64,000 nt of DNA. Source: Escherichia coli (GTDB lineage Bacteria; Pseudomonadota; Gammaproteobacteria; Enterobacterales; Enterobacteriaceae). A model generated the notes under the pieces. It was not told the origin of the DNA and searched no databases. It saw only the letters and a list, made by a program, of their open reading frames with translations. The stretch lies in assembly GCF_017348835.2 (NCBI RefSeq), contig NZ_CP072317.1; one strand, written 5' to 3'. A program made the position numbers and the translations under genes. Every line of letters starts with the position of its first letter. Position 1 is the first letter of the stretch. Positions 24,675 to 42,749 of this stretch are shown here, piece by piece.

Positions 24675-24888
24675 AGTGTTTCCTCTGCCTTTCCTGATAC
24701 GCCTGACATTCAACGCACAACGTCACACCGGGAAATATTTTCCGCCGGGCTTCCGGAATAGGATTTCCGCATGCTTCACAGAGATAAACAGGAATACCAT
24801 GAACATTTATTTCCTGGCGTATCCGGTTTATTCCTGTCATGGTCAGTTGTTCTGTCACTGAATATGCTTCATCGGCTTCATCACTCAC
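24667..24888 (-). CDS. traR: TraR DksA-like zinc-finger protein
   Basis: 73-aa ORF with CxxC...CxxC motif, matches F TraR. Confidence 0.9.
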   Translation of the reverse strand: MSDEADEAYSVTEQLTMTGINRIRQEINVHGIPVYLCEACGNPIPEARRKIFPGVTLCVECQAYQERQRKHYA

Positions 24889-25022
24889 GGAATATTCCTC
24901 CCGACATGTTCTGACACGCTACCGCCCATCCCTTTTCACGCACAGGGCACTCGTTTTACAGGCGGATTTTGAATACAGAAAGCCCGCCGGCATTGCCGGC
25001 TGATATACAACTTCAGGGCCAG

Positions 25023-25538
25023 TTAATTAATACGTGGTTTTCCCCACGCAGACGGTTTAATAACAAAAAACACGCTGGATGGCTGATGATAAACATCCTG
25101 GTTATCAATATAAGGCGCTATCCATAATGCTGCCGTCTGCTCACCCGTTCTTAGCGGACGAGGAGGTGTTACCGGCGTAACTGAACTGACCGGAACAACC
25201 GTTTTCACTTCCCGGGCAGCGGTAAACAGCGGGCGTGGTGCCAGCAGTTTCTGCTCCGGATGTGCTGTCACCGCAGGTCTGCTGCCGGACGGAGTGGTCG
25301 CGGTGACGGTCTGCACCGGCATTGTCCGGAAGTTCCCTTCAGCCAGGCGCGGCAGTGATGCCGCAACCGGCTTTGCTTCTGAGGACTGCTCCAGTTTTTT
25401 GGCCTTCTCATTGGCCTGCTCCATCGTCATACAGGTATCGGATGTGGTGGCGTTACACTCAAATTCCGTATTTGTTCCTGCGCAGCCGGAAAGTAATAAG
25501 GTTCCCAGCAGAGGAATAAATAAAGAAATCTGTTTCAT
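25023..25538 (-). CDS. traV: TraV outer membrane lipoprotein
   Basis: 171-aa ORF with lipobox LSGC. Confidence 0.9.
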   Translation of the reverse strand: MKQISLFIPLLGTLLLSGCAGTNTEFECNATTSDTCMTMEQANEKAKKLEQSSEAKPVAASLPRLAEGNFRTMPVQTVTATTPSGSRPAVTAHPEQKLLAPRPLFTAAREVKTVVPVSSVTPVTPPRPLRTGEQTAALWIAPYIDNQDVYHQPSSVFFVIKPSAWGKPRIN

Positions 25539-25786
25539 TGCCCTTCTCCTTTTTTATTACTCCCCACAACAGCAGAAATTAACTCTGCTGTCAGATTTGT
25601 TTTCCCTGCACAGGGATGTCCGGAGACCACTGTATTTCCCGGAGAAGAAAATAAGCTCATCGACATTCCCTTCTTCATCACACCGACAGCAGCCATATTA
25701 AAATTGTGCGGCAATGATTCAGAACTGAACACCTTCGGAGCAGGAAGAACTATTTTTGTGGTGCAGTTACTGAGAACAGCATGCAT
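25535..25786 (-). CDS. trbG: TrbG-like protein
   Basis: Distal 83 codons (from MHAVLSN) of the 25535..25903 ORF; F TrbG is 83 aa. Confidence 0.5.
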   Translation of the reverse strand: MHAVLSNCTTKIVLPAPKVFSSESLPHNFNMAAVGVMKKGMSMSLFSSPGNTVVSGHPCAGKTNLTAELISAVVGSNKKGEGQ

Positions 25787-25841
25787 AAAATCATCTGATA
25801 CGTTTTTATCCGGCACAACGCGGGCTGTAATAACATTAATA

Positions 25842-26429
25842 TTACGCATGTTCATTTTTATCTCCGTTGCTTCTGTTTGTTCGGTCATCAGGGAAATAAA
25901 CATGGCATTTCCTGATTTTTCCCGGCAGGGAAGCGTCTTCCGTATAAACGTCCTTCAGATATTCATCTGCGGTTACCACCCGGATACATTTCATTTTTCC
26001 GGGCAGCACCGGATATTTCCCGGTGCCTGCCGCAAACGACATATACATCAGTGCCAGCGTTGCCCAGAATGCGGTGACCAGTTGCATCAGTGACCGGTCA
26101 GTCTCCCTGACATAATCTGCAGCATCAGCCGCGCGGTAATGGCAGATATCCTGTATTTCTGATCTGCCTGAAGAATCAGAGGAAGAAAACCAGCATTCAC
26201 TGACCGGGAACTGTCCGGCAGGTGCTGTTTGTCTTACGAAGTTAATCTCCTTAACCAGTAATTTCCCCGGCGTGGTGTTGTCCTTCCATAAAACAAACAG
26301 AGCCATCAGGGCCATTGTGGCCAGCGGCCAGATAACCACAAACCTGACGACCCACAGCAGCCAGCGAACGACAAACGCCACACGGAATGTCAGTGCATCA
26401 CCCGCCATTTCCGCCCTCCTTGCCGGCAT
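25842..26429 (-). CDS. traP: TraP membrane protein
   Basis: 195-aa ORF with N-terminal TM helices in F traP position. Confidence 0.8.
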   Translation of the reverse strand: MPARRAEMAGDALTFRVAFVVRWLLWVVRFVVIWPLATMALMALFVLWKDNTTPGKLLVKEINFVRQTAPAGQFPVSECWFSSSDSSGRSEIQDICHYRAADAADYVRETDRSLMQLVTAFWATLALMYMSFAAGTGKYPVLPGKMKCIRVVTADEYLKDVYTEDASLPGKIRKCHVYFPDDRTNRSNGDKNEHA

Positions 26430-27849
26430 CCCCGCCCAGCGGGTTCTTGTCTCCGGACATAAACTGCTGCGGATTCAGATTGCCCAGCTGTTTCAGCATC
26501 TGGTCGGTGTTAAAACCGTTCAGGTGGCTTTCTGCCGAGGGAGGATTCGGCACCGGGCTTTCCGGGTTACCCTCTTCCGCTGTACTCTGTGACTGCTCCA
26601 GTGCCATTTCCTCCACGGTTTTCAGCTGGAAGCCGTCCTGGAACACCACGGTCACTTCGTTGCCCGCACCAATCGGTATCACCGGGTGATACTGTTCGGC
26701 ACGTTTGATGTAGTAGTCACTGAGCGTCTGTGCGGCTTTCGATGCGCCGCCACCGATACCCATTTTCAGGACATCACCAGCCCCGTAAGCGGCTGTGGCA
26801 CCCAGCCCGACAGCCGGTTGGGAGGCGCGCTCCATTCCCTGACCGATACCGTCAACAAATCCCGCGCCCCATGCCCAGCCGAGGATTTTGCCGTTACGCA
26901 TCACCACTTCGCCCTTGATACCGTTTTTACCCCGGAAGCTGACATGCCCCTTAATCGGCATATCAATAGTTTTGCCGTCCTTCAGGCAACTGATATTGCG
27001 GGTGCGTACAATGGCACGTTCACTGGACACATCCCCCCAGGCTTCCAGCCCCACAAAACATCCCGTTGCGTCATACGTCTTGCTGTTCGGCATTTCCACC
27101 AGGCCGGTGATACGCAACTGCATCGGCACCGTGGATTCATTACCGGTGACTGAGGCATTGGCATCCGCCCCTTCAATCAGCATGGCTTTCGCAAAACTTC
27201 CTGACGGAATGTACGGCAGCGATGGTCCCTGTTTTCCCTCATTACGGGTAAACACCTTACGCTGTATCCGGTTAGGCACCGGCACAGACTGGTACGTCAC
27301 CTGTGGTGGTGGCGTGACACCATTCCCGGGATAAAACGCCGTCGGCGGTGGAACAGCAACGCTGCCCTGCGGCGGGAAGGATACGGGGGTGTTTCCTGGC
27401 TGTGGTTCGCCTTCCGGGCCGGGCGGTGGGGCAGGCATCTGCGGTACAGGCTCACCGGTCGCCGTGACGGGATTAGCACCCAGGGCTTTTACCTGCTCTG
27501 CCAGGGCGGCATTGTCCTGTCCCAGCTTTTCAATACGACGCTGGTCATCACCGCGCTGTTTGTTCAGAACATCCAGCTCACGACGGATTTCCTCATACTG
27601 CTTCTGCATCTGCGCTGCCGTCACCTGCATCTCTGTGGTGGCATGCTGACGCACCTTGTCATCAAAGGTCGTATCCACCACACCGGTCATATCCGGCACA
27701 GGCTCCTGTTCAGCCACGGTTTCACCGTTACCGGACATGTCCACATCAGACAGATACAGTGCCCCACCAATCGCGGAGGCTGTACCGACAACCACAATCC
27801 CCAGCCACAGGTACTGCTTGCGTTTCACAATGGTATTGATACTGGCCAT
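26398..27849 (-). CDS. traB: TraB (VirB10-like)
   Basis: 483-aa ORF, proline-rich linker, matches F TraB. Confidence 0.95.
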   Translation of the reverse strand: MASINTIVKRKQYLWLGIVVVGTASAIGGALYLSDVDMSGNGETVAEQEPVPDMTGVVDTTFDDKVRQHATTEMQVTAAQMQKQYEEIRRELDVLNKQRGDDQRRIEKLGQDNAALAEQVKALGANPVTATGEPVPQMPAPPPGPEGEPQPGNTPVSFPPQGSVAVPPPTAFYPGNGVTPPPQVTYQSVPVPNRIQRKVFTRNEGKQGPSLPYIPSGSFAKAMLIEGADANASVTGNESTVPMQLRITGLVEMPNSKTYDATGCFVGLEAWGDVSSERAIVRTRNISCLKDGKTIDMPIKGHVSFRGKNGIKGEVVMRNGKILGWAWGAGFVDGIGQGMERASQPAVGLGATAAYGAGDVLKMGIGGGASKAAQTLSDYYIKRAEQYHPVIPIGAGNEVTVVFQDGFQLKTVEEMALEQSQSTAEEGNPESPVPNPPSAESHLNGFNTDQMLKQLGNLNPQQFMSGDKNPLGGDAGKEGGNGG

Positions 27850-28577
27850 CAGTTGCCCTCCCCGTCACGGATGACATACACATCCATGCGCGCACCTGCC
27901 AGTAACTGGCTGGCAGGCTGGCTGAACATCACGGCACGGGTTCCCGGCTGCCAGAAATCACTTTCCCGGATATTCAGGGCAGACAGCGTTTTATTTTCCA
28001 CGACAAAGCGGACCATCTTCAGGTGATTCCCCGTCCATACGGAATCTGCCACTGAAGACAGCCCCGCCGGGGCCTGCAGGGTTTCCTTTGTCACAGGAAC
28101 CTGATACCAGCCTGCAGGTAATTTTCCGCCACGGACAGCCTGGCTGATGGTCACAAGCAGGGATTCGTAAGGCGTGGACGTTTCCCACGCTCCGGCTTCT
28201 TCTCCGGTTCCGCGCAGGTCACTGACCAGCTGAATGGTACGCCCCGCGCCTTCACGGGGAACAGCCTGAATGGAAAGGTTCAGACCACGCTCTGTTTCCA
28301 GAATGAACGTAAAGGGCTTTTTGTTGACGGTGGCCACCACCACACCGCCGGAGGCGGTCTGCTCATTATTGGTCAGGGCACCATCCAGACTGTTCACGGC
28401 GATAATCCGGTCACCGGGAACGGTAAACAGATTCGGGCTGGTATTGCTGATGGCAATACTGGCCTGACCACCGTTCACCATTGGCACCACAGTGGGGGCC
28501 AGCGTACCGTTTGCGGCCATCACGCTGCAGGAAAAAAACAGGCCGCCGAATATTATTGCCGTATTATTTTTTCTCAT
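27849..28577 (-). CDS. traK: TraK secretin-like protein
   Basis: 242-aa ORF with signal peptide. Confidence 0.95.
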
Positions 28578-29130
28578 CGTCTGTTTCCCCGAAATTATCC
28601 AGCCAGGTCACCCCGTTTTCCCGCTTCAGAATAAGGATGTAATGTTTGATATCAGTAAAAGGTTCGGAGTTACCAATCCATGTTTTCCGAATTCCACGGA
28701 TTTCCACACGACCATACTGAGGCCAGACACGGACACTGGTCTGGAAAAAAGCAGAATTCACGTTATCTTTTTTAATGAGTTTCGCTTCTTCAGCCAGAAT
28801 AACTTTCATCTGGTTCTGTGCACCCGGGCGGATATATTGCAGAAGCGCCTGATGTGAAGCATCGACGATTTCCGGTGAGACATTCAGACGGAGGGCAATA
28901 AATGACAGCGCCATCTGCTGCAAATAAGAGGCATCGGCACTGTTCTGTGACACGGCAAAGGGCACATTAAATCCCATTGGGGTCACGGCAGTGCGTTGCT
29001 CATTCTGAAGACGGTAGTTATTCACCCCCTGAATGAGGTTAACAGAGAGGCTGAGAACAATAAGCACTGACATAAATATAAAGGCGATGGCCATTACACG
29101 ACTGGTACTTAAACGGGCACCGTGTTCCAT
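28564..29130 (-). CDS. traE: TraE pilus assembly protein
   Basis: 188-aa ORF with N-terminal TM anchor. Confidence 0.95.
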
Positions 29131-29151
29131 ATAACAATCCTGGTATCAGTT

Positions 29152-29463
29152 CTATTTAATCCACTGCCGGAAACACGAATCGGGAACATTATGAAAAATA
29201 CCGCGCAGCAGGGCTGTTGGCATATACCAGTAAATCAGGTCACGTAACCAGGAACTGCCCCGCCCTTTTTTCAGTTTTTTAATCCCGAAATAAACCAGAA
29301 CCGCTGCACCAATACCGAACAGATATTTCGATGTTGTGATACCCCAGCCAACACAGATTGCTGCGGGGATCAGTTCATCCAGTGGCAGGCCAAACCAGCG
29401 GCTCTGGTTGGTCAGTGTTTCCGGGAAACGATATTTCTTAAGTTTATTCTCGTCTCCCGACAT
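29152..29463 (-). CDS. traL: TraL pilus assembly protein
   Basis: 103-aa membrane ORF between traA and traE. Confidence 0.9.
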
Positions 29464-29477
29464 CGTTTTATTTCCTG

Positions 29478-29837
29478 TCAGAGGCCAACGACGCTCATAC
29501 CCACAGCAATAAATACAGAGATGATGGCAAAGCCGACCAGGAACTTGACGTTTTTGGTCATCATGTACATGACCGCACCGACCAGCACCTCAGCCAGAAC
29601 AACCCATTTAACGATACTGGAGTCCTTACCGAAGGTCGCCTTAACCGTATCGTTACCTTTAGCCATCAGGTCGCCTTTACCAGCAGCCATAGCTAACTCA
29701 GGGAACAACATCATCAGAACAGCAACCGGGATCACTGCACGAACCAGGCGAAGCATATTCAGACGAGTGAATTTAGAAAAAAACGATTTCTTTTCAACGG
29801 GCGCAGAAGCACCCTGAACACTTAAAACAGTATTCAT
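29478..29837 (-). CDS. traA: TraA propilin
   Basis: 119-aa ORF with long leader ending AMA and hydrophobic mature pilin. Confidence 0.95.
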
Positions 29838-29869
29838 AAGTTACCTCTATTGTGGATAGATTAATAAAC

Positions 29870-30097
29870 CTAAAGATCTTTAATTATCGAATCAGTTTCC
29901 TCTGCTCCCTCCTTTATTGCATCCAGATTATAAAAGTCAGGAAAACGGTTCAGATGATCACGTAACCTGACTAGCACCTCATTAGTTTTTGTTCTCCCAC
30001 TACGTTCCCGGGCACCTAAGAGCTTGTGATTAGTAGCATCGTCCAATACCAGTAAAACTTTATTGCCCGGAGCAGGCCTTATTATATTTCTGCTCAA
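29870..30097 (-). CDS. traY: TraY (short R100-type ribbon-helix-helix oriT-binding protein)
   Basis: 75-aa ORF immediately upstream of traA. Confidence 0.8.
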   Translation of the reverse strand: MSRNIIRPAPGNKVLLVLDDATNHKLLGARERSGRTKTNEVLVRLRDHLNRFPDFYNLDAIKEGAEETDSIIKDL

Positions 30098-30233
30098 GTC
30101 TCCTCCTCAGCCACTTAGATAATTAAATATAATTATACGAATCCATAAAAATAGAAACGAAAATAGAGTAAATTACATTAACAAAACAAGGTGACATAAT
30201 GTCACCTTGTTTTTAACAAAAACGAAACATCAA

Positions 30234-30905
30234 CTATTCAGCACATTTTAAAATAAAAAACAATTCATCAAAGAATAAACTATGCATCCTGCTTGTATGA
30301 AAAATCATTAACAAATCATGTTTTGAATGTATACCGAAAAACTTATACACTTCTGAAATTGCATTCCGGGAAGAACCATTAGTAATAGACAAAAGAGATG
30401 CTATCGATTCATGACAAAAACCAAATGAATAAAGAATAAAAACTTTCCATTGGATTTCCGTTGATTTGTTTTTAAATTCAAGCATTCTGTCATTTGTTAT
30501 ATTTGTACGTAATCCTCTACAATAATCCACTATCACATTAGAATTTTTGCAGAAAAAAAGCCATAAAACATTAACCACCTCCCCATATATTAATGGTATA
30601 AATTGTACCAGCCAGAGTTTATCACCTATAGCCACGCTCTGTATTTTATTCATGGACGAAGGCAAAGACATAGCATCCAGTTCTTCTCTTAAGAACGATG
30701 TAGCTACTTGTACAGGAAGGGAGTAAAACCACTCTTTGATATCAAGACTACCTATAAATTCTTTAGAGAATTTTTCATTGTAGCCGATAAAATCTCCATT
30801 AGTATTTCGAACACAAGCAGGGATTGAAAAAACATCGACAAAAAACTGTTTATCCAAATATATTTGACGTTCAGTATTAAGTTGTCTAGGATCCGTCGGA
30901 TACAT
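30234..30905 (-). CDS. traJ: TraJ transfer activator (R100-type)
   Basis: 223-aa AT-rich ORF; ATG at 30905-30903 with AGGAGG RBS. Confidence 0.85.
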
Positions 30906-30979
30906 AGGAACCTCCTCTCAAAGGATTCTATGGACAGTCGATGCGGGGAGGTCGCTCTCCCTGCATCGGCGATTTTTAA
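30902..30979 (+). ncRNA. finP: FinP antisense RNA (approximate ends)
   Basis: Antisense to traJ RBS and start; two stem-loops, second (30944-30972) followed by GATTTTT on + strand. Confidence 0.6.
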
Positions 30980-31098
30980 TATCTGTTTTAACGTGGCATT
31001 AACCACATAATTAATATAACCTTTATGTGGTTAATTGTCATCAAATTGAACCAGATCAAAATCCTGTTATTTGAAGTAAATCAACTTTTAATTCTTTT

Positions 31099-31482
31099 TT
31101 ATTCCTCATCATTTTTTGGAAAAAATCGTTCCATCTCAGATGACACCTTCTCACGAATATCTTCAACCATATTGGCATATTCAAACTTTGGATTCCCGGA
31201 GACATGGGGACTTAGAGACTCAATACCCAAAATTTTCGCTACTGATGACTGTGTTTTTACAACACATTCAAGAAGAAGTTTATTAAACTCTGTCTGATTA
31301 AACGCAGACTCTTTACGCTCCATCTGAGCCTCATATACACGAAGCCCCAGTTCAAGAAGCATTGAAGCTGTTCCCGAAACACTTATATCTTTATCTCTTG
31401 CCCCCTCCTGACGACGCTGTTCAACTATCGCATTTACTTTATCATAGACATCATTACTGATATACAAAATTACTCTGGCCAT
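31099..31482 (-). CDS. traM: TraM relaxosome accessory protein
   Basis: ORF 31099..31584; start set at MARVILYISND to give 127 aa as in F TraM. Confidence 0.9.
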   Translation of the reverse strand: MARVILYISNDVYDKVNAIVEQRRQEGARDKDISVSGTASMLLELGLRVYEAQMERKESAFNQTEFNKLLLECVVKTQSSVAKILGIESLSPHVSGNPKFEYANMVEDIREKVSSEMERFFPKNDEE

Positions 31483-31599
31483 AAGATAAAACCTTTCATT
31501 ATTAAGCAATGAACTTTTCACTATAAATATGCATATAGTGTTTACAAGTAAGAAAGACACTCCTAGCAGCGCCTCTAGGATCATCCTATAAAAAAATGC

Positions 31600-31870
31600 G
31601 ATCCGGCGCTAGGGGCGTCCCTAATATATATCAATGTTTTTCATGAAAATTGTCAGTACTGATCCTAATAAGAGTCGCTATAGGGTCGTAACAGGATCGC
31701 CAACGACTCTCTATTTAATAATTCAGAATTATTAAATATAAATAGCGTTTGTTAATTACATGATTTAAAACGTAAATCAGCAAAAACTTGTTTTTGCGTA
31801 GTGTGTGGTGCTTTTGGTGGTGAGAACCACCAACCTGTTGAGCCTTTTTGTGGAGTGGGTTAAATTATTT
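31600..31870 (+). other. oriT: oriT, nic within GTGTGT/GGTGC at about 31806/31807 on + strand
   Basis: Sequence TTTGCGTAGTGTGTGGTGCTTTTGGTGGTGAGAACCACCAACCTGTTGAG matches F/R100 oriT core; lies between traM and orf169. Confidence 0.8.
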
Positions 31871-31897
31871 ACGGATAAAGTCACCAGAGGTGGAAAA

Positions 31898-32407
31898 ATG
31901 AAAAAATGGATGTTAGCAATCTGCCTGATGTTTATAAATGGGATCTGCGAAGCCGCCGATTGCTTTGATCTTGCAGGTCGGGATTACAAAATAGACCCGG
32001 ATTTACTGAGAGCGATATCATGGAAAGAATCCCGTTACCGGGTTAATGCCATCGGTATTAATCCGGTAACGGGATATGGCAGCGGACTGATGCAGGTAGA
32101 TTCCCAGCATTTTAACGAACTGGCCCGCTATGGAATTAAGCCGGAACATCTGACAACAGATCCCTGTATGAACATTTATACCGGTGCTTATTATCTGGCA
32201 ATAGCCTTTAAAAAATGGGGCGTCTCCTGGGAGGCCGTTGGTGCATACAATGCCGGATTCAGGAAGACCGAACGCCAGAACCAGAGACGTCTTGCCTACG
32301 CATCAGAGGTTTACCGGATTTATACCTGGATAAAGAGCAGTAAAGGCATCCGGGTTCCGACCACGAAGAAATCACTTTCCCAAATTAACAGTGTGCAGAA
32401 AAATTAA
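31898..32407 (+). CDS. lytic transglycosylase (F orf169 / gene X family)
   Basis: ORF 31805..32407; start at [10 protein letters not shown] gives 169 aa with signal peptide and SLT-like motifs. Confidence 0.85.
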
Positions 32408-32703
32408 TATTGTATACATTGTCAAATACCGGTTATGCCGCGACAGCGGCATGGAAGGCCACACACAAAAATATCATATGAGTGATAATGCTGACTGGCC
32501 GAAGCCCCGCAAAGCGGGATCCCATCTTATATATATCCGGTAACTGCGCAGCCTCCTGCCAGACCATTTTTCGCGGGCACAATATTTACAGACTACCGAA
32601 AAGCCAGTTGATGAAATTGAGGCATATCAGACGACACAGCAATGCCGCAGGATGATAATATAAGTAAAGCCCCGAAAAATTTTTCGGGGCTTTACTTATA
32701 TTA

Positions 32704-33525
32704 TCATGACTTCCACTCCCTGAACTGTTCGGCAATCATCCATAATGCTTTGTTGATTCGGATATCACCGTCAATGCCTGTAATGGCTCTTGTTCTGGTA
32801 TTTTTACCGGAGGCACTTCGCCCCGATAATCCACCTTTTATCATATTCTCCTGAACCCGCTGCCAGGTTGTCCAGAGATCGTTCTGTTTATCCTCCCAAC
32901 GGCGGGGAGTAATTATTTGTTCTGGCGTCACTGGCGTTTTATTTTCATCTTCGTACCTGGCCATCAATGCAGCTCTGCCAAATAAATGTTGTTCGTCACT
33001 GTTAAGATGTATCTCTTTCATTGTCTCCATATTTTCAGTGACTTTATCAAAGACACCGAGCACTTCATACGCTCCCTCAATAACCTGCCCGACAATATCA
33101 CCTTTATGTGGAACGCGGATTTCGCCAAAATTATTCCCACACACCAGGCCATTTGTGCAGACAAAACGAAAAATTCCTGGGATCATCTGATAACTGGATG
33201 AACCATCATGTGAATTAAGCAGGATAATTTCAGGAACTTCTTTCCCGTTAATATGCCCTTCCCTGCGAAGACGTAACATATGTTTACTGTATTCGCGGCG
33301 TCCCAAATCACGAACCCGACTCTGACAGGCAAAGAATGGCTGGAAACCTTCATCACGTAACTTATTGATGATATTGATGGTTGGGATATATGTATAACGC
33401 TCACTCCGGGATTCATGTTTATCACCAGAAAAGACAGATGGAACAAACTGCATTAATTCGTCATCCGTTAACGGGCGCTCACGGCGAATAGAATTATATC
33501 GACCAAAACGGGAAGCTAATCGCAT
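32704..33525 (-). CDS. conserved leading-region protein (F orf273-like)
   Basis: 273-aa ORF in the orf273 position of F-like leading regions. Confidence 0.55.
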   Translation of the reverse strand: MRLASRFGRYNSIRRERPLTDDELMQFVPSVFSGDKHESRSERYTYIPTINIINKLRDEGFQPFFACQSRVRDLGRREYSKHMLRLRREGHINGKEVPEIILLNSHDGSSSYQMIPGIFRFVCTNGLVCGNNFGEIRVPHKGDIVGQVIEGAYEVLGVFDKVTENMETMKEIHLNSDEQHLFGRAALMARYEDENKTPVTPEQIITPRRWEDKQNDLWTTWQRVQENMIKGGLSGRSASGKNTRTRAITGIDGDIRINKALWMIAEQFREWKS

Positions 33526-33635
33526 AACAGTAACTCCTTTATGAAGGCATAAAATTAATAAAAGTTTTTTCGCTTAATATCATCCCCCCTCGGTTATCGT
33601 TAACAAAAAGACAACAATTCCGAGGGGAAGGACCA

Positions 33636-33932
33636 TCAAATCAGGTCAGTTCGGGACTGACCAACCTGCCGAGTGAAAAGCAGTAACAGCGCGATCAACT
33701 CATCAGCGTTTTTTCTGACAAGAGGAGTATGATTCTCCAGGCTATCCAGTAAGTCATGCAGCTCATTATTGACCTGGTGGAGCACCTTAAAGAGTGCACC
33801 AGAATCCCGGCAGCTCTGATATGCAAGATTTGCCTGAACAGCACGATTCTGCATGATCCCGATTTGTGCGATTGCGTCTTTCTGCTGATCGCCTGTTGGC
33901 TGATAAGTGGTGTTAAAAGAAAATGCGCTCAT
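33636..33932 (-). CDS. hypothetical protein, first ORF 3' of Frpo-like repeat copy 1
   Basis: 98-aa ORF; start codon 9 bp from the repeat boundary. Confidence 0.45.
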   Translation of the reverse strand: MSAFSFNTTYQPTGDQQKDAIAQIGIMQNRAVQANLAYQSCRDSGALFKVLHQVNNELHDLLDSLENHTPLVRKNADELIALLLLFTRQVGQSRTDLI

Positions 33933-33940
33933 AATTCCTC

Positions 33941-34620
33941 CTGTATCTGATGTTTTCAGCCCCCATCATCTGTTGAGTTTCGGGAGCCGCGGTTTTGACG
34001 TTTTGCGGGGACCTGCCTTTTGTTCCCTCCGGTATTCACCATCACCTGTTTGAGAACCTTCGCCGCAAGGGGCATCACTGCCACGGCCTGACGCACCTGT
34101 CCTGGGCAGAACGCAAAATTTTTTACCGGGTTTTGGGTAAAAAATTTTGTGGGCTGTTCATTTACCCTGGACAGTCAGTGCGGCAGGTTGTGGCTGTCTA
34201 TGCCCCCGGCGACAGGGGCTTAAACAGGTGAATGGCACCGGACAGAACAACGGGCAGGGACCCGCCGCAACGACGTGAAGCGCGGTTTGCGAAACGGCGT
34301 TGCTCCTTACATCCCGGCGTCTTTTGCCGGGATGCCGGGAGCGCAGGCCACGGCGCGACAAGGGTGGCGCGACCGTTCCGGTCGCTGCAAACCCGGGTTT
34401 TTGCGTCAGGGATGGAAGCCCGCCAGGGCGGAGACAGCTTCGCTGGCTCCGTTCACGACAGCCCGCCCCGCCAGGGGGACGCCCGGAAAAGGCATAAGCA
34501 GGAGAACAACAAAACAGACAATAATCAGGGCAGCAGTAATCAGAGTCAGAGCAGTAATCAGAGTCAGAGCAGGAGGAAAAAGAGAATAATCAAAGGGAAG
34601 GTGATGTGATTTCTGGTAAG
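33941..34620 (+). promoter_or_regulatory. Frpo/ssi-like repeat unit, copy 1 (candidate single-stranded-DNA promoter)
   Basis: Near-identical to 39431-40110 and related to 42750-43400; contains a ~230-nt imperfect hairpin on the + (transferred) strand. Confidence 0.6.
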
Positions 34621-34846
34621 TCATAAACAGAGAAGGCGGGGGAAAAGAACGGGCGCCGCAGGCGCACGTTCATCCCCGTTCCCGGAGGGAAACGGCCTTC
34701 CTGGCAGTCTGGTTGTTCATGCCCGTACAATGCCAGCAAGGAGAAAGGGGCCACCGGCGAACCAGCAGCCCCTTTATAAAGGCGCTTCAGTGCAGTCAGA
34801 CCAGCATCAGCCCTGAAAAGGCGGGCCTGCGCCCGCCTCCAGGTTG

Positions 34847-35005
34847 CTACTTACCGGATTCGTAAGCCATGAAAGCCGCCACCTCCCTGTGTCCGTCTCT
34901 GTAACGAATCTCGCACAGCGATTTTCGTGTCAGATAAGTGAATATCAACAGTGTGAGACACACGATCAACACACACCAGACAAGGGAACTTCGTGGTAGT
35001 TTCAT
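34847..35005 (-). CDS. hok: Hok-family toxin (hok/flmA)
   Basis: Manual translation gives [52 protein letters not shown] (52 aa); below ORF-track size cutoff; GC hairpin 34821-34840 in 3' region. Confidence 0.85.
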
Positions 35006-35063
35006 GGCCTTCTTCTCCTTGCGCAAAGCGCGGTAAGAGGCTATCCTGATGTGGACTAGACAT
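34851..35063 (-). CDS. mok: Mok (modulation of killing) overlapping reading frame
   Basis: 70-aa ORF overlapping hok in another frame, as in hok/sok loci; sok antisense RNA expected on + strand about 35030-35110 but not delimited. Confidence 0.55.
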
Positions 35064-35284
35064 AGGGATGCCTCGTGGTGGTTAATGAAAATTAACTTAC
35101 TACGGGGCTATCTTCTTTCTGCCACACAACACGGTAACAAACCACCTTCACGTCATGAGGCAGAAAGCCTCAAGCGCCGGGCACATCATAGCCCATATAC
35201 CTGCACGCTGACCACACTCACTTTTCCTGAAAATAACCCGCTCATTCAGGCTGTTTACGGGTAATCTGTGTGATTGTTGCCGCA

Positions 35285-36004
35285 TCACGCCGCCTCCCGG
35301 AGTTTGTTCGGCACCATCCACCGCTCCATCTCACGGACAGCGTGACCGGCCTCTCTTGCTGCAAGACTGGCTTCCGCAATAACCTGCCAGAACGGCATAT
35401 CCTGCCACTGCCAGCGTTCCATTCCGGCCAGTGACGGAAAACGCTCACCCCACTGCCAGAACAGGGTTTCCAGGTCATGCTCTGCCACCCGGTCACTCCA
35501 GCGTGCATGCCAGCTTCCGACTGTTTCCGGCGAATGGAATGCCAGTTCGATTTCAGCCTGAGCGACCAGCGCCTGGTACGCACGGGCTTTCTGCTCTGCC
35601 TCCCTCGCCTGCTGGCGGCTGTACTTTTGCATGACCAGTGCGGATTTGTGGCGACTGCGCTCCCTGACACGGAACCGCACCGACGGGAACAGCCGCTCTG
35701 CTGCATCGCCGGGAAGGGGAAGAAGGCAGACCTCGCCCTGAGTTTCAATCAGCACATCGACGGCATACAGCCACTGAGAACGGTTGCCGCGCAGTTCTTC
35801 TGCGGTCAGGGACGGCATGAAAAATCGCAGGTCAGACAGCGATATCCTGCGGCTTCCGTTCAGACAGCGGAAAAACGCCCCCGCATACGGATATTCCGCC
35901 AGCGTGTTTCCCTGGTGGCGGCGTTTTTCTGTCTCCGCCACCGCCCGCCATGCGGCCTGTTGCTCTGCGCTGAGGGGAACCAGTGCCTGTGAACGTGCGC
36001 TCAT
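35285..36004 (-). CDS. psiA: PsiA plasmid SOS inhibition protein A
   Basis: 239-aa ORF, stop/start coupled to psiB. Confidence 0.9.
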
Positions 36005-36435
36005 GCCTGACCTCCTTCCGCCATCAGGATATGGATGATGTCACTGACGCTGTACCCCTGCGCGTCCAGTGACGCCGCCAGTGCCAGTGAATGGCTGACG
36101 GCTTCCGGTGCAAACCGCCGCTGTACCTGAACCACCGCAAACGGCTCACCACCGGCATTCACCAGAACCAGCACCCAGACCTGAGAGACATCGCCCGGTG
36201 AACATAACGCCAGGTGAAAACGTTCGTGGGCAGGCGTGAAACGGACCTGGACGGGGAAAAAGCCGCCGAACTCGCTGCCATACTCGCCGTTCATCGTCCA
36301 GTTATCCGGCGCATCCAGCTCCCGCATCACGGCATGTGTGAGTTCACGACGTTCATCACTTCCGGCAGCCCGGATATCTTCATATTCCTGTGCGCTCATG
36401 GTCTGTAATACATTCAGGGTCAGTTCAGTTTTCAT
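36001..36435 (-). CDS. psiB: PsiB plasmid SOS inhibition protein B
   Basis: 144-aa product from second Met, matches F PsiB. Confidence 0.9.
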
Positions 36436-36503
36436 CACGGTATCTCCCTTGCTGCCGCCCCGTCTCCGGCAGGGCGGCGTGATAAATGGTTTATGACTGG
36501 CGG

Positions 36504-38527
36504 TCAGGCGGCTTCTGCCTGGTCGTCACGGTACTCCGTGGTTTCCGTCTCTGCCTGTGGACGTGGTGTACACATCCAGCCAGGCACCCAGCGGTTGTCT
36601 TTCATGTGGAACTCTGCATGTTCAGCGGCATCGCCTTTCTTCATTTTCTCCGCGTCCCGCGCAGCACCGGACAGTCCGGCATCATTCAGGGCATCGATAA
36701 TCTGCGGCTTTTGCAGGTGTCCGAAGAAGTTTGCTTTCGTCGGCTGCCACCAGTCGCGCATGTGGAATCCGATAGCGCTCTCCAGCGAGTCCAGCGGACT
36801 GCGTGACGTGTGACCATGCTCGCGGGTCTGAACGCCGTGGATGCTGCACGCGGTGCAGAAACTGAGCAGGGATAACAGTACCTCCTGGCTGAGTGACAGG
36901 AATGTCGTCATATCCCGTGACCATCCCTCCGGTAACAGGGCTGCAAGACGGGCTTTTTCTGCCATCAGCGCCAGGAATGCGGCACCGTCCTTCCCCGATG
37001 GCGCATCGCTGGTCAGCGAATAATGTTTACATTCCAGGCTGATTTGTGCTGGTTTACTGTACGCTCCGCTGCCAAACACATTCAGGCAGAGCGCTGATGA
37101 ATCCCCTAATGATTTTGGTAAAAATCATTAGGGGATTCATCAGGGCAGAGCGTCCATGCCAGCAGTGCCAGAGATTTGTCCGGTTGCTGCATCAGTGCTG
37201 CCTGGACTGCCAGCGTGCGTTCGGAAGACATTTTCGTCAGCAGTGGCAGACTGATTTCCTCCACGGGCGCTTTCTCCTGCACCTGTTCCGTGCGGTCAGC
37301 GTCGTCAGCCGCATCATCCTCGCTGCGCAACTGCACACCACGCTGGACACACACGTTGCCATAACGCCAGGACACCACCACACCGCTTCCGGCACGCATC
37401 TCCGGCGTCCACGCCCTGACCTTCGCCATGCAGCGCATCAGCTTCATTTCTGCTTCCAGCAGGTCAGATTCCTCACACTGGTTTTCCAGCGCGTCGTAAC
37501 GCGTCATCAGTTCGTTCAGACGTTCTTCTTCCGCCTCCGTCAGCACCGCTTCCGGCTCCGGCAGACAGCGGTATGTTCCGGCATCCTCACGGCACTCACC
37601 GACAGGCTCCATGCGTCCGGCGCACCATCCCCAGCCTTCGGCTTCCCGAAGGTGTTCAGCAACAGCCTGGAGTTTTTCCAGCAGGGCGGCATCGAGCGCC
37701 ACGCAGTCCACATAGCCACCCTCGTCGTCGCTGAACAGGTCAGTGCGCAGTTCATCTGGCGAGAAGGCATCAGCCCCCACGAAGCGGAATTTACTGTTCC
37801 CTGCCACCGCCACTTCACTTTCGGTCACCAGACGACGAATGGTCTGTACTTCCGGTTTACCGCCCCATCCCGACTGACAGGCGGCTTCAAACACCTGCAC
37901 CTGACGCGCGGTGTCGTTCTCCAGCGCCAGCGCCTGACAGTGCTCGGTGGTGATGAGGTCTTCTGCCAGCGCATCGAGGATGACAGGCGCAAGGTCAGCC
38001 AGTTTCAGCATTCGCTGAACGTGGCGGGGTGAATAGCCCAGCAAATCACCGATTTGTGCAGGTGTTTTGCCTTCCTGCGCCATTGCACAGAATCCGGCAA
38101 TCTGTTCGGCTGGGTGCATATCCCGACGATGACCGTTCTCGGTCATCGATGCGGCCGTCGCCAGTTCCTGCGAAATAATTTTCACGCGGACAGGCCAGTC
38201 AGCCGGAATGATGCCACGCTCTGCCAGCATGTTGAGTGCTGCCAGTCGGCGACCACCTGCGGCGACACCGTGGCGGTCACCTGGCAGGGCATGAACAACC
38301 AGATTCTGCAGCAGGCCGACCCCCTTAATGGAATCAGCCAGTTCGCTGACGGACTCCGCAGAATACGGCACCGTGCGCACATTCAGTGGTGACTTAATCA
38401 GCGAGGCCAGCGGCACGCTCACTTCCTCCGTCTGCGCCAGCAGGGCAGACAGGACAGTTTCCTGCGTTTTTGCAGGTTTACGGCTTGCTTTACGGGTAGA
38501 TTTTGGTTCAGACTTTGTTACTGACAT
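36504..38527 (-). pseudogene. ParB-like leading-region gene disrupted by a 59-bp insertion
   Basis: ORFs 37106..38527 and 36504..37079 are in different frames; removing the 50-bp element plus one 9-bp duplicate restores one frame; upstream ORF ends in DESPNDFYQNH encoded by the insert. Confidence 0.7.
37094..37143. mobile_element. 50-bp palindromic mini-element made of IS10 terminal inverted-repeat sequence, flanked by 9-bp direct repeats
   Basis: CTGATGAATCCCCTAATGATTTTGGTAAAAATCATTAGGGGATTCATCAG; flanking GGCAGAGCG at 37085-37093 and 37144-37152. Confidence 0.65.
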
Positions 38528-38587
38528 GACTATCCCCTTATTGTGTAGTTAATGTCTGCCGGACGTGATCCCCGTCCGGCACCTCTC

Positions 38588-38860
<273 letters not shown>

Positions 38861-38878
38861 TTATCACAGTCAGGCCAG

Positions 38879-39406
38879 TCAGAACGGGATATCGTCTGAA
38901 AACCCGTAATCCTCCCCCTCCGGTGGTTGCGGCTGAGGCTCCGGCTGCGCAGCCTTACGTCCACGGCCTTTCGTTTTCGCGCTCCCTTTTTTCGTCGCGT
39001 CAGCACTCTGTGACTGACCATTCTGCTGAGGCTGCGGTTGCACCTGAGCGTTCTGCTGTGGTGCACTCCCCAGCATCTGCATGGTGCCCGTGGTTTTAAC
39101 AAGGATTTCGGTGACGTAACGGGTAATACCGTTATCTTCCCAGCTACGGGTGCGAAGCTGGCCTTCAATGTAGACCTGCGCCCCCTTACGCAGATATTCA
39201 CCTGCCACTTCCGCGAGCTTGCCGAACAGCACCACGCGGTGCCATTCCGTCTGCTCCTTCATTTCCCCCGTCTGTTTGTCGCGCCAGGTTTCTGACGTGG
39301 CCACCTGCAGGTTTGCCACTGCGCCCCCGTTGGGGATGTAACGGACTTCCGGATCTTTTCCCAGACGACCGACAAGAATGACCTTGTTAATGCCACGAAC
39401 TGCCAT
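38879..39406 (-). CDS. ssb: plasmid single-stranded DNA-binding protein
   Basis: ORF 38879..39445; start at [16 protein letters not shown]; OB-fold N-terminus, Q/P-rich linker, acidic tail DDIPF. Confidence 0.92.
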
Positions 39407-39430
39407 GATGTGTCTCCTTCTGTTGATGTT

Positions 39431-40110
39431 TTCAGCCCCCATCATCTGTTGAGTTTCGGGAGCCGCGGTTTTGACGTTTTGCGGGGACCTGCCTTTTGTT
39501 CCCTCCGGTATTCACCATCACCTGTTTGAGAACCTTCGCCGCAAGGGGCATCACTGCCACGGCCTGACGCACCTGTCCTGGGCAGAACGCAAAATTTTTT
39601 ACCGGGTTTTGGGTAAAAAATTTTGTGGGCTGTTCATTTACCCTGGACAGTCAGTGCGGCAGGTTGTGGCTGTCTATGCCCCCGGCGACAGGGGCTTAAA
39701 CAGGTGAATGGCACCGGACAGAACAACGGGCAGGGACCCGCCGCAACGACGTGAAGCGCGGTTTGCGAAACGGCGTTGCTCCTTACATCCCGGCGTCTTT
39801 TGCCGGGATGCCGGGAGCGCAGGCCACGGCGCGACAAGGGTGGCGCGACCGTTCCGGTCGCTGCAAACCCGGGTTTTTGCGTCAGGGATGGAAGCCCGCC
39901 AGGGCGGAGACAGCTTCGCTGGCTCCGTTCACGACAGCCCGCCCCGCCAGGGGGACGCCCGGAAAAGGCATAAGCAGGAGAACAACAAAACAGACAATAA
40001 TCAGGGCAGTAGAAAAAAGAAGAACAGTAGCAGTAGCAGTAGCAGTAGCAGTAGCAGTAGCAGTAGCAGTAGCAGTAGCAGGAACAACAACATCATCAGT
40101 AACAGACAAA
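39431..40110 (+). promoter_or_regulatory. Frpo/ssi-like repeat unit, copy 2, immediately 5' of ssb
   Basis: Near-identical to copy 1; ssb start about 25 bp away. Confidence 0.65.
40026..40081. repeat. hexanucleotide microsatellite (CAGTAG, about 9 copies)
   Basis: Perfect tandem repeat at the distal end of repeat copy 2; copy 1 carries an 18-bp-type imperfect repeat at the same place. Confidence 0.9.
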
Positions 40111-40260
40111 TGACAGGTCTGAAAAGACAGAAGCCCCCATCAGAACGTCCGCGTAATGAAAGGGGCGGCGCGTGAGCGCGGCCCCTTTCAGCGCCACCGG
40201 CGCGCGGTTTTTTCCCGGCGCGGACAGACGGGCATTTATCCTCCCGCCAGCCCTGTGTCA

Positions 40261-40824
40261 TCAGGCACGCAAACGAATAATCATCGTCGGGACATCGGTA
40301 TAAGCAAACGTGCCGCGCGGCAGCTCCTCGCGGACGTCAGAAAACGGTAACAGCTTCTCCTGCTGGCGTGGCCCGTTGAGACAGACGGCAACCAGAACGC
40401 CCCCCGGACGCAACAGGGAAAAAGCCCGCAGGATATGCCGGATATCCTGCCCGTGACTGAACGGCGGATTCATAATGATCCGGCTGTAATACTGCACCGA
40501 CTGCCATTCCATGAAGTCGCCACACTGTACCCTGACACCGTTAAAATTTTCCCGCAGATACCGGACCAGCCCGCTGTTAATCTCCACCGCATCACACATG
40601 GCCTCCGGCGCGGTATCCCGAATCGCCCGCAGTATGGCCCCGGTGCCGGCAGAGGGTTCCAGAATGTGATCACGGTTGCTGATTTCCGCCAGCGTCACCA
40701 GGCGATCACAGATCGGGGCAGGACTCACAAAAAGCTGAGATTCAGCCCGGATTTCAGCAACCGGCGCGGCGTTATCCAGCCTTGCGCGCATCAGCCGGAT
40801 ACGTTCTCTTAACTGACTGTGCAT
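40261..40824 (-). CDS. orphan SAM-dependent DNA methyltransferase (NPPF motif)
   Basis: 187-aa ORF with SAM-binding EPSAGTG-like motif and NPPF; no adjacent restriction gene. Confidence 0.65.
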   Translation of the reverse strand: MHSQLRERIRLMRARLDNAAPVAEIRAESQLFVSPAPICDRLVTLAEISNRDHILEPSAGTGAILRAIRDTAPEAMCDAVEINSGLVRYLRENFNGVRVQCGDFMEWQSVQYYSRIIMNPPFSHGQDIRHILRAFSLLRPGGVLVAVCLNGPRQQEKLLPFSDVREELPRGTFAYTDVPTMIIRLRA

Positions 40825-40870
40825 ATCATTATCTCCGTCATCCCCCGGGGATTTCCCGGGGGGATATACC

Positions 40871-42232
40871 TTATTTCTGTGGGATTTCCGTGATTTTCAT
40901 GTCGGTGATATACACATTCACCAGACGGAAATTATTGTCCATTGTGCGGCGGTAGCGGTATGCCCCGTGGTCTTCTGCTTCTTCCACACTGCGCACGGCC
41001 TTACAGTCCCGGGGCAGGGCGGCCCACTGCGCCTTTGTCATTTCCCGGAAACCTTCCCCCGGATAGTTGACTACCGGCGGACGCTTCGCGGCCTGACTGG
41101 CGACGGCAGCCTCTTCTGCCGATGGTGCTTTGTAGTCCGTGATGCGATCGGGCGTCACTTTCATCGTGCCGCTGTACCCGAGAAAACTGTAATTTGGCGT
41201 TGTGACTGAACTCACCGCCCCGTTGCTTTTGTTCACGCGGATGATAGTCAGCCACTCGCCCCGGCTGAAAACCTGTCCGCCCGGCTCAAAATCCTGTGTC
41301 CGGGTAACCACGCCGCCGCTTTCGTCCAGCATGGCACGCTCATAGATCAGGCGGTTCTGATAGTGGTTAACCCAGCGTTGCTGATGCTGAATCTGCCGTT
41401 CATGACAGCGGATCGCAATTTCGCGGGCCTGCTCCGTGGTGATGATGTCATCATCCAGGGCCGACCATAACGACCGGCTCCCTTCATACTGGCTTTTTTC
41501 TGCCGGGCGCGGATACGTATCCAGCGGGAAACAGGCGCTGATATGGTCATGACTGCTGATGAGTTTTGCCATATTCAGATCCAGCGATTCAGCCCGCCAC
41601 ATCGTCAGATATTTCTGCGACTGTGCGATGGTCTTTTCAGCCTTGCGCAAATCAGCTTCGATTTTTTTGATACGACGCCAGCGAACGTCCGGGCGTTCTT
41701 TATACTTCGCGTGAAGCAGTGCCGACCGCGCCCGTTCTTCCCAGTATTCCGCACGTTCAAAGAGCATCACGGCACGTTTCATGCCGTTTTCAATACGCTG
41801 CGCATCACGACGGGCGCGGCGTTCGCTGTGATGCCCCACAAGAATGGGCTGACCGGGCGGGATCATCGCGGCCAGTCTTTCCACTTCATCAAGTGCCTGT
41901 GCGGATTCACTGGCCCGCTTTCCGCTGTATCCGGTAAACCGCTCCGCCCGTGCTTCCTGACGTTCAGCGAGCGTGCTGTCTTCATCCTCAATCTCTCCGG
42001 CAAGTGAGAGGAGCACGTCTTCCCGGCCCGGTGTCCAGGCTGGCGCGACAAACAGCGCCTGTCTGGGTGCCCAGCGGAAACCGGCATCATGCACTTTTTT
42101 ATACGTCTCCGGGTCAAGACGTGACGCGGCATACAGGCGCAGTTTGTTGTCATCCGGTGAGTAGGTCGCGCGGTACATCTGCACAGGGCTGGCGGCTTCC
42201 GGGGCGGTCATGGTGATTGCAGCTAATGTCAT
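40871..42232 (-). CDS. hypothetical leading-region protein (453 aa)
   Basis: Long ORF with good coding continuity between the 76-aa ORF and the methyltransferase. Confidence 0.55.
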   Translation of the reverse strand: MTLAAITMTAPEAASPVQMYRATYSPDDNKLRLYAASRLDPETYKKVHDAGFRWAPRQALFVAPAWTPGREDVLLSLAGEIEDEDSTLAERQEARAERFTGYSGKRASESAQALDEVERLAAMIPPGQPILVGHHSERRARRDAQRIENGMKRAVMLFERAEYWEERARSALLHAKYKERPDVRWRRIKKIEADLRKAEKTIAQSQKYLTMWRAESLDLNMAKLISSHDHISACFPLDTYPRPAEKSQYEGSRSLWSALDDDIITTEQAREIAIRCHERQIQHQQRWVNHYQNRLIYERAMLDESGGVVTRTQDFEPGGQVFSRGEWLTIIRVNKSNGAVSSVTTPNYSFLGYSGTMKVTPDRITDYKAPSAEEAAVASQAAKRPPVVNYPGEGFREMTKAQWAALPRDCKAVRSVEEAEDHGAYRYRRTMDNNFRLVNVYITDMKITEIPQK

Positions 42233-42283
42233 AAAATGTTCTCCTTCCGTCTGTTGCCGCCCCTCGCGGGGCGGCTCACCTCA

Positions 42284-42514
42284 TCAGTTAAAAGCGCGTT
42301 TCAGTTCGAGTGTGCGGAGCACCTGCCCGAAAGCCGTATTTTTCATGGCGGGGATGTGTACACCACGTCCCCGGTGAAAACTCCGGGCAATGTGTCGCCC
42401 GAAGGCTTTCAGCACGGGGTCAATTTCCGGCGCGGGGATGTCTTCGCGTCTGAAACGGGGATGACGGCGGGGCTTTACAGCCGCTGCGGAAGGTGAAACA
42501 ATACTTACCGTCAT
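42284..42514 (-). CDS. hypothetical basic small protein, first ORF 3' of Frpo-like copy 3
   Basis: 76-aa ORF. Confidence 0.4.
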   Translation of the reverse strand: MTVSIVSPSAAAVKPRRHPRFRREDIPAPEIDPVLKAFGRHIARSFHRGRGVHIPAMKNTAFGQVLRTLELKRAFN

Positions 42515-42749
42515 AAATGAAACTCCTTATGACTGTTGAATGGAACCGCAGAAACTGCTCGAACAGTTTTTGCGGTGTGGATTAAGCAGGTCCTCCCCGG
42601 CCTGCTTTTTTCATATCTGCGTCTGACGTTCTCCGGTGTTTTCCTCCTTCTGTTCCTGCGTTCTCATTACCTGCCAGCCGGATGACTGACAGAACAAATA
42701 AATGCGTATTGCCGGAGCCTGAAATAAATCCTGATTTTTAAAGAACATC

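Follow-up and report, generated by a model that had tools for sequence, protein, structure and literature searches.

A ParB-like gene in the window, by which we mean the whole 64,000-nucleotide stretch of Escherichia coli DNA analysed here, is split by a short foldback sequence, and the question is where this sequence came from and what it has done to the gene. The foldback is a 50-bp palindrome at 37094-37143 (CTGATGAATCCCCTAATGATTTTGGTAAAAATCATTAGGGGATTCATCAG), self-reverse-complementary save for its four central bases GGTA and laid out as 23 + 4 + 23 (arm CTGATGAATCCCCTAATGATTTT, loop GGTA, arm AAAATCATTAGGGGATTCATCAG). On both sides it directly abuts a copy of the 9-bp sequence GGCAGAGCG, the left one at 37085..37093 and the right one at 37144..37152, their starts being 59 nt apart. 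The 23-nt arm occurs twice in the 64-kb window, both times within the palindrome, and its chance expectation was 0 in 100 shuffles even when 3 mismatches were allowed; folded as a single strand, the stretch reached -27.4 kcal/mol (z = -7.75 against shuffles). The palindrome is thus a real observation, far beyond chance. An assembly artefact was ruled out, since 915 independent records share the identical sequence. Moreover, inspection of the palindrome sequence revealed no T-run behind the stem on either strand, and an acquired regulatory role of the hairpin was dropped as a candidate, as nothing supports such a role.

Next to the split ParB-like gene lie psiA, psiB, a DUF905 gene and ssb, which marks the locus as leading region, in a plasmid of the F-like kind. 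Overall, the window carries an IncFII backbone of the R100 type, collinear with R100 at 99.4-100% identity save for an IS26-bounded resistance module. The 5′ fragment of the broken gene (37106..38527, minus strand) is a 473-aa ORF ending in LAWTLCPDESPNDFYQNH, of which 462 residues are native and the last 11 are encoded by the palindrome, where the stop codon also lies. The 3′ fragment (36504..37079, minus strand) holds native residues about 465-654 and is out of frame with the 5′ fragment because 59 is 2 mod 3. An earlier note on this DNA had ascribed the frameshift between the two ORFs to 59 bp, the palindrome plus one copy of the repeat, and removing these 59 bp indeed produced a single 1,965-nt ORF of 654 aa without internal stop; the reading frame returns only upon this removal. 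In RefSeq the equivalent of 36504-38527 is one pseudogene, ‘frameshifted; internal stop’, and the locus has no other annotation.

The restored protein has Pfam domains ParB_N (residues 41-131) and HTH_ParB (136-222), and over its full length is 92% identical (599/654) to a 652-aa protein of plasmid F, whose gene sits likewise between the DUF905 gene and psiB. This F protein is YfjB, equated by length, position and annotation. A preprint of July 2026 renames YfjB as HerB and describes it as a ParB-like, CTP-binding leading-region protein that is induced upon plasmid entry (PMC13370423; bioRxiv 10.64898/2026.07.07.736705). Its domains are given as D1 (residues 1-136, CTP-binding), D2 (137-235, HTH), D3 (238-417) and D4 (418-652) (PMC13370423). 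In these terms, the native part of the 5′ fragment covers ParB_N, HTH_ParB, D3 and the start of D4, and the 3′ fragment most of D4. The statement that a conserved leading-region gene had been broken holds, and plasmids carrying the palindrome have the gene annotated as a pseudogene, in keeping with a lesion and not with 59 bp housed inside an intact longer ORF. Relatives lacking the insert point the same way: plasmid F and the empty-site plasmid L001 both have an intact ORF without the 59 bp.

To which mobile element does the palindrome belong? The arms had been proposed to be IS10 terminal sequence, and alignment bore this out. The palindrome agrees with the IS10-Right outside end at every base from 1 to 37, beyond which intact IS10 outside ends diverge from it, and both arms match the outside end at 23/23 positions, which leaves no room for a sequence unrelated to IS10. 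The flanking 9 bp had been read as a target duplication resembling the IS10 target consensus; they match five of the six specified positions of NGCTNAGCN, the Tn10 hotspot consensus reportedly established by Halling & Kleckner in 1982. An intact IS10 (IS4 family; 1,329 bp, with one outside and one inside end) is excluded, as the insert is only 50 bp long, has no transposase ORF and has outside ends on both sides. The insert might still be what a single IS10, not Tn10, left behind after transposase-mediated excision and repair, given that the arms are IS10 terminal sequence and that IS10 is common in these hosts. However, a single IS10 would contribute one outside and one inside end, and the inside end (CTGAGAGATCCCCTCATAATTTC) agrees with the arm in no more than 17/23 positions. 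As both arms match the outside end throughout, the parent had outside ends at both extremities, like Tn10. Furthermore, when IS10 or Tn10 is excised by cut-and-paste, the breaks are known to be flush with the termini and nothing of the transposon stays behind, so that the chance of a single-IS10 footprint is practically negligible.

The element with outside ends at both extremities is found at this very place in R100 (NC_002134), where Tn10 occupies 36132-45278 (9,147 bp) between the DUF905 gene and psiB, i.e. inside the same gene. An insertion of Tn10 in the parB-like gene of R100/NR1 has been reported (PMC2797631). In R100, Tn10 lies at a base position identical to that of the window palindrome and is flanked on both sides by CGCTCTGCC, the reverse complement of GGCAGAGCG; the junctions read ...gacgCTCTGCC/CTGATGAATCC... 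and ...GGATTCATCAG/CGCTCTGCCtgaatg. The reading of the flanking 9 bp as a target-site duplication was thereby borne out, as they occur on both sides of the palindrome, singly at empty sites and in the same form around the R100 Tn10.

We then compared the two ends of the R100 transposon, CTGATGAATCCCCTAATGATTTTTATCAAAATCATTAAG... at the IS10-Left end and ...CTTAATGATTTTTACCAAAATCATTAGGGGATTCATCAG at the IS10-Right end. Each outside end is near-palindromic over its bases 14-37, and the two IS10 copies are inverted relative to each other; therefore both Tn10 ends carry direct repeats, 24 bp in length and 23/24 identical (TAATGATTTTTATCAAAATCATTA and TAATGATTTTTACCAAAATCATTA). Deleting in silico the sequence between these repeats gave two possible 50-mers that differ only in one loop base, and the one whose loop comes from IS10-Right is, in reverse complement, the window palindrome base for base. 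The alignments agree with this construction. Window 24286-37130 aligns with R100 58086-45242 at 99.992% identity, and window 37107-51346 with R100 36168-21910 at 99.38%; both alignments break 37 nt inside a Tn10 end and overlap exactly over the 24-bp repeat, and over 1.5 kb to either side the identity with R100 is 99.94% and 100%.

Accordingly, the palindrome can be divided into its sources. Positions 37094..37130 (plus strand) are outside-end bases 1-37 of the Tn10 terminus from IS10-Right, the R100 alignment reaching 37130 (R100 45242), and comprise the first arm (37094-37116), the loop GGTA (37117-37120) and the start of the subterminal repeat. The 24-bp repeat that joins both Tn10 ends lies at 37107..37130 (TAATGATTTTGGTAAAAATCATTA). 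The second arm (37121..37143, minus strand) stems from the opposite Tn10 terminus, in R100 the IS10-Left end, and holds its outside-end bases 1-23; window 37107-37143 corresponds to R100 36168-36132. Loop base 37118 is G, the IS10-Right type, with A in the other allele. Since the loop base comes from IS10-Right and 37131-37143 from the other end, the crossover falls in the interval 37119-37130.

We therefore regard the 59 bp as the remnant of a ‘nearly precise excision’ of Tn10 at its native site in the IncFII plasmid R100, with a probability of roughly 0.94. The product sequence, the common site, the common duplication, the near-identical backbone and the presence of both predicted crossover alleles carry this reading, and no direct evidence contradicts it. 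The R100/NR1 insertion and the window share the gene, the base position, the 9-bp duplication and a near-identical backbone, but R100 keeps all 9,147 bp including tet(B), whereas the window keeps only 50 bp; 9,097 bp of Tn10, with tet(B) and both IS10 copies, have gone. Of the two origins that the earlier note had offered, the ‘footprint of an IS10 event’ stands as far as the word footprint goes; its parent was the composite Tn10, given the poor match of the inside end and the full Tn10 in R100, and not IS10 by itself.

Nearly precise excision of Tn10 is said to have been described by Ross, Swan & Kleckner (Cell 1979) and by Foster, Lundblad, Hanley-Way, Halling & Kleckner (Cell 1981). As reported, the remnant in the classical work measures 50 bp and forms across the 24-bp repeats; gene function is not restored, and the remnant can later be lost. 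Reportedly, Foster et al. (1981) and Lundblad & Kleckner found that the process depends on host functions, independently of transposase and RecA, and that long inverted repeats stimulate it. It becomes more frequent in mutants defective in mismatch repair, recBC, uvrD or ssb. The window locus has the same makeup: two Tn10 termini are joined across the 24-bp repeats, both arms are outside ends, both copies of the duplication are kept, a full Tn10 with the same duplication occupies the same site elsewhere, and the interrupted gene is not restored. Nothing structural distinguishes it from the classical remnant. The differences are that classical remnants came from laboratory isolates, whereas this one arose in nature and became fixed in an epidemic lineage of plasmids (915 PLSDB records), and that here both crossover alleles are present in nature. 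One paper paraphrases nearly precise excision as involving ‘internally located inverted repeat sequences’ (PMC5991714).

The course of events may be pictured as follows. An R100-type ancestor would have carried the 9.1-kb Tn10 (IS10-Left, tet(B) region, IS10-Right) in herB/yfjB with its 9-bp duplication. In single-stranded DNA the 1.3-kb inverted IS10 copies could snap back on each other, so that the short repeats come to lie side by side where the stem begins, and a deletion between these subterminal direct repeats would leave bases 1-37 of one end and bases 1-13 of the other, that is, the 50-bp palindrome with both copies of the target duplication kept. Established work suggests that such a deletion would be a replication-slippage or copy-choice event of the host, without transposase or RecA. 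The excision itself is historical and beyond observation, and for slippage and for the independence of transposase and RecA we rely on the literature. As part of the leading region, the site becomes single-stranded whenever the plasmid is transferred, and one may speculate that entry into recipients in this form favoured excision.

For this deletion two loop alleles are predicted, and both exist. In PLSDB, the full 50-mer was present in 932 records, 915 of them with the same flanks as in the window, and 15 records still have Tn10 at the junction (R100, NR1, NC_011812 and others). In a sample of the more than 4,000 remaining matches, the empty site appeared as two pieces spanning 89 bp (148 minus 59); empty-site records number in the thousands, and the sampled plasmids have an intact CDS annotated as ‘ParB/RepB/Spo0J family’. 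Direct comparison with pNDM-d2e9 showed a single GGCAGAGCG and no 59 bp, and L001 likewise has a single copy. That L001 is a precise-excision revertant was ruled out, as it is only ~93% identical to the window and hence belongs to another lineage. The 50-mer with loop TATC, derived from IS10-Left, occurs at the same site with the same duplication in 9 PLSDB records (L012-L014 among them); hosts include porcine Salmonella Typhimurium from Korea as well as E. coli from a Norwegian pig and from a cat in Thailand.

Between 35545 and 37629, these TATC plasmids differ from the window at loop base 37118 alone, and they diverge from it only further upstream. That the TATC allele is a point mutation of the GGTA allele is possible in principle and unlikely, since it is the sole difference in ~2 kb and coincides with the IS10-Left polymorphism. 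The plasmids also bear on whether R100 ancestry is needed at all. Tn10 could have inserted independently at this hotspot in an ancestor other than R100 and then undergone nearly precise excision: with five of six consensus positions matched, a repeat insertion at the same 9 bp is conceivable, and the TATC plasmids show 73-79 differences from the window further upstream. We consider such a separate history quite improbable. Close to the site, the backbone shares 99.94-100% identity with R100, and the Tn10 orientation implied by the two loop alleles is the same as in R100. Moreover, the TATC plasmids equal the window over ~1.5 kb to one side of the site and 490 bp to the other; beyond these stretches they diverge abruptly, which fits later recombination. 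The sequences thus point to one ancestral insertion also for the TATC records, with the alternative excision outcome and a later recombination of the backbone.

The other origin suggested in the earlier note was a miniature IS10-derived mobile element, that is, a MITE-like sequence inserted by transposase in trans and generating its own 9-bp duplication. The 50-mer shares much with MITEs: it is short and non-coding, carries terminal inverted repeats of a known IS in the form of two complete 23-bp outside-end arms for transposase binding, and is flanked by a target duplication. The 5,426 complete E. coli genomes were searched for copies elsewhere, as had been proposed, and the 50-mer was found in 306 records from 299 genomes, 245 at the herB site and ~61 elsewhere. 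It has at least five flank contexts in E. coli, which taken alone would suit a mobile element. However, three of the five contexts have no duplication but unrelated flanking sequences, namely papA|strAB, a truncated gene for the M subunit of a type I R-M system (hsdM) and a truncated IS10 transposase gene.

The papA context is instructive. At its left junction an intact IS10 was found in 18 genomes, and at the right-hand junction in 52; strain D10 carries a complete Tn10 in papA at that same left junction, with the duplication TGCTTGACC. A full Tn10 precursor thus exists at both sites examined, herB and papA, and we found neither a duplication at every copy nor multiple dispersed copies that are without a full-length precursor. 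The numbers per genome also speak against amplification by transposition, as there is one copy per replicon, one in the window and about one per genome. In 100,044 species-representative genomes, the remnant junction GGTAAAAATCATTAGGGGATTCATCAG had one match, a 4.9-kb contig assigned to ‘Streptomyces morookaense’, which is the same plasmid locus and probably a contaminant. At the window site itself, the position and the duplication are those of the R100 Tn10 in a backbone of 99.4-100% identity, and the two alleles track the IS10-Left/IS10-Right loop polymorphism, as expected from Tn10 deletion and not from copying of a single element. With 4 bp between them, the two ends of one such element are sterically prevented from pairing in a transpososome; hence a 50-bp element with this spacer is probably too short for synapsis of its own ends. 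A scar that is unamplified, in several copies without duplications and not the product of short-element transposition differs from MITEs in these respects, and we hold a miniature element to be very improbable.

One further copy may serve as a control. Strain SL112 (University of Florida) provides the sole context besides herB in which the scar has a 9-bp duplication, TATCAGGCC; the scar lies between epmB and yjeJ, ~5 kb from an engineered frd operon. Presumably the frd deletion of the KO11/LY180 lineage was introduced by transduction with a linked Tn10 that was later eliminated. A literature search gave no confirmation of a linked Tn10 in the history of KO11/LY180, and the use of SL112 as a positive control for Tn10 excision is only partly supported.

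The scar may retain some activity. It holds two complete IS10 outside-end sites, and it is conceivable, though we think it unlikely, that these are used by IS10 transposase in cells carrying IS10. One end by itself might then pair with the end of a nearby IS10, giving rise to deletions, inversions or new composite transposons; movement as a tiny non-autonomous element is much less likely. The three palindromes without duplication, which lie at rearrangement boundaries, are compatible with such use of the scar by IS10 transposase, and are equally compatible with a simple deletion between two separately inserted inverted IS10 copies.

What, then, has nearly precise excision of Tn10 left of the gene? 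As encoded in the window, the gene does not specify the full-length, four-domain HerB. It resembles HerB/YfjB of F in identity (92%), in its place between the DUF905 gene and psiB and in its ParB_N and HTH_ParB domains, and differs in being a pseudogene cut after residue 462, within D4. D4 is reported to be the dimerisation core, and constructs without D4 form no foci (PMC13370423). The truncated product is without the larger part of D4, to which the 475-479 strand and the 545-625 subdomain belong (features as described in PMC13370423); from the truncation data of that preprint, it should therefore not form foci. HerB is also reported to ease plasmid establishment (PMC13370423). Thus, the window lineage stays defective in herB, a state in which R100 was before it. 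R100 is still conjugative although its gene has always been interrupted at this point, and the R100-type lineage can evidently do without intact HerB. It is also conceivable, though again we think it unlikely, that ~900 plasmids keep a lesion which by the classical work can excise precisely because loss of HerB is neutral or advantageous in this lineage.

Loss of Tn10 may also have affected the neighbouring genes. Relief of transcriptional polarity on psiB and psiA is plausible, and so is the loss of outward transcription from IS10-Right. For psiB of R6-5, Dutreix et al. (1988) reportedly credited enhanced expression to an upstream Tn10.

The phenomenon itself is textbook transposon genetics, described in 1979-81, and opens no new question; this kind of feature is already known, and the particular instance follows directly from the facts of R100. 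Its value lies elsewhere. The scar is an unambiguous marker of a single event, according to which a Tn10-bearing ancestor of the R100 type gave rise to a very large IncFII group of clinical importance; to it belong pC15-1a (NC_005327), many plasmids of K. pneumoniae and CTX-M plasmids such as pCREC-591_2. In their description of pC15-1a, Boyd et al. (2004) reportedly note only the ‘absence of Tn10’. Moreover, both predicted crossover products of a deletion pathway defined in the laboratory have become fixed in nature, and the scar plasmids, a very successful group of resistance plasmids, are like R100 without intact HerB/YfjB and so offer a natural knock-out for gauging the importance of HerB. 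Annotation pipelines label the locus only as a frameshifted ParB pseudogene, and a Tn10-remnant feature could be added. No description of this scar in R100 derivatives was found in the literature searched.

The scar is itself unstable. In NZ_CP145621, only four extra bases (TCAG) are present at the site, the psiB-side flank being identical to the window, and on comparison of the sequences a second deletion, running from an ATTCA of the flank to the ATTCA of the right arm, would account for these bases. Separately, a 49-bp version of the scar exists, with GGG instead of GGGG.

When the palindromes at the outside ends of Tn10 are read inward, the loop is TATC in IS10-Left and GGTA in IS10-Right, both in the Tn10 of R100 (NC_002134, ends at 36132-36171 and 45239-45278) and in that of E. 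coli strain D10 (L018, positions 16111 and 25257). From sequence comparison, the IS10-Left loop looks inverted relative to that of IS10-Right, that is, when flipped it reads GATA versus GGTA. Because of this inversion the ends of Tn10 are identical at 23 of 24 positions as direct repeats, and for a hypothetical pair of IS10-Right-type copies this identity would be only 20/24.

The IS10-Left loop was also found in a second scar allele at the herB site, where TATC/GATA replaces TACC/GGTA (the base at window 37118) in an otherwise unchanged 50-mer (L012 1571-1620 in NZ_LR882055; L013 in NZ_CP149333; L014 in NZ_CP115353). Nine PLSDB records carry this allele, with pigs, a cat and Salmonella among the sources, and the backbone of these plasmids matches that of the window exactly near the scar, with divergence starting ~490 bp upstream.

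Shortened versions of the scar were also observed. In NZ_CP145621 (E. coli, human stool, Bern; L002 1501-1593), just four additional bases, TCAG, are left at the site matching window 37085-37152, which fits a secondary deletion of the 50-bp remnant, running from ATTCA of the flank to ATTCA of the right arm. The herB frameshift persists, and the PLSDB table annotates no CDS between psiB and the DUF905 gene of this plasmid. The palindrome in CP050276, a 404-kb K. pneumoniae plasmid (L003 2501-2549), is 49 bp long with GGG instead of GGGG in its right arm, and this could reflect either true loss of 1 bp or a sequencing error in the homopolymer. The scar and its flanks are identical in a 4,944-bp contig assigned to ‘Streptomyces morookaense’ DSM 40503 (contig164, NZ_JABBXF010000164.1), which holds an enterobacterial IncF leading-region locus and is almost certainly contamination of that assembly.

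Elsewhere in E. coli, the identical 50-bp palindrome lies at boundaries of chromosomal rearrangements, namely a junction of papA with aph(3'')-Ib (strAB) (L005/L006 2001-2050), a truncated type I R-M M subunit gene (L008 2001-2050) and a truncated IS10-family transposase gene (L009 2501-2550), and no target duplication was found at any of these loci. These copies likely arose by deletions joining two inverted IS10/Tn10 ends that had inserted separately. The papA/strAB junction is common to many pig and poultry E. coli. In E. coli SL112 (NZ_CP043486; L007 2001-2050, and L016), the epmB-yjeJ interval holds the 50-bp scar with a 9-bp duplication, TATCAGGCC. An engineered frd operon, with a glycosyl hydrolase family 8 gene in place of frdB/C, lies ~5 kb from this scar, which was probably left behind by a laboratory Tn10 that served in building the strain.

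Among the large parts of the window, only a resistance module at 51347-58370 lacks collinearity with R100. It is bounded by IS26 and contains three copies of it (about 51347-52168, 54932-55753 and 57551-58370), together with blaCTX-M (52536-53411), a 5'-truncated blaTEM (54193-54930) and erm(B) (56521-57294). Leading-region segments of ~630 bp are repeated at window 33948-34575 and 39424-40054 (also 42746-43183), upstream of ssb and downstream of psiA/hok. These segments might correspond to repeated single-strand promoter regions of the Frpo/ssi type; each matches both R100 33221-33851 and 47797-48424 at 97.8%.
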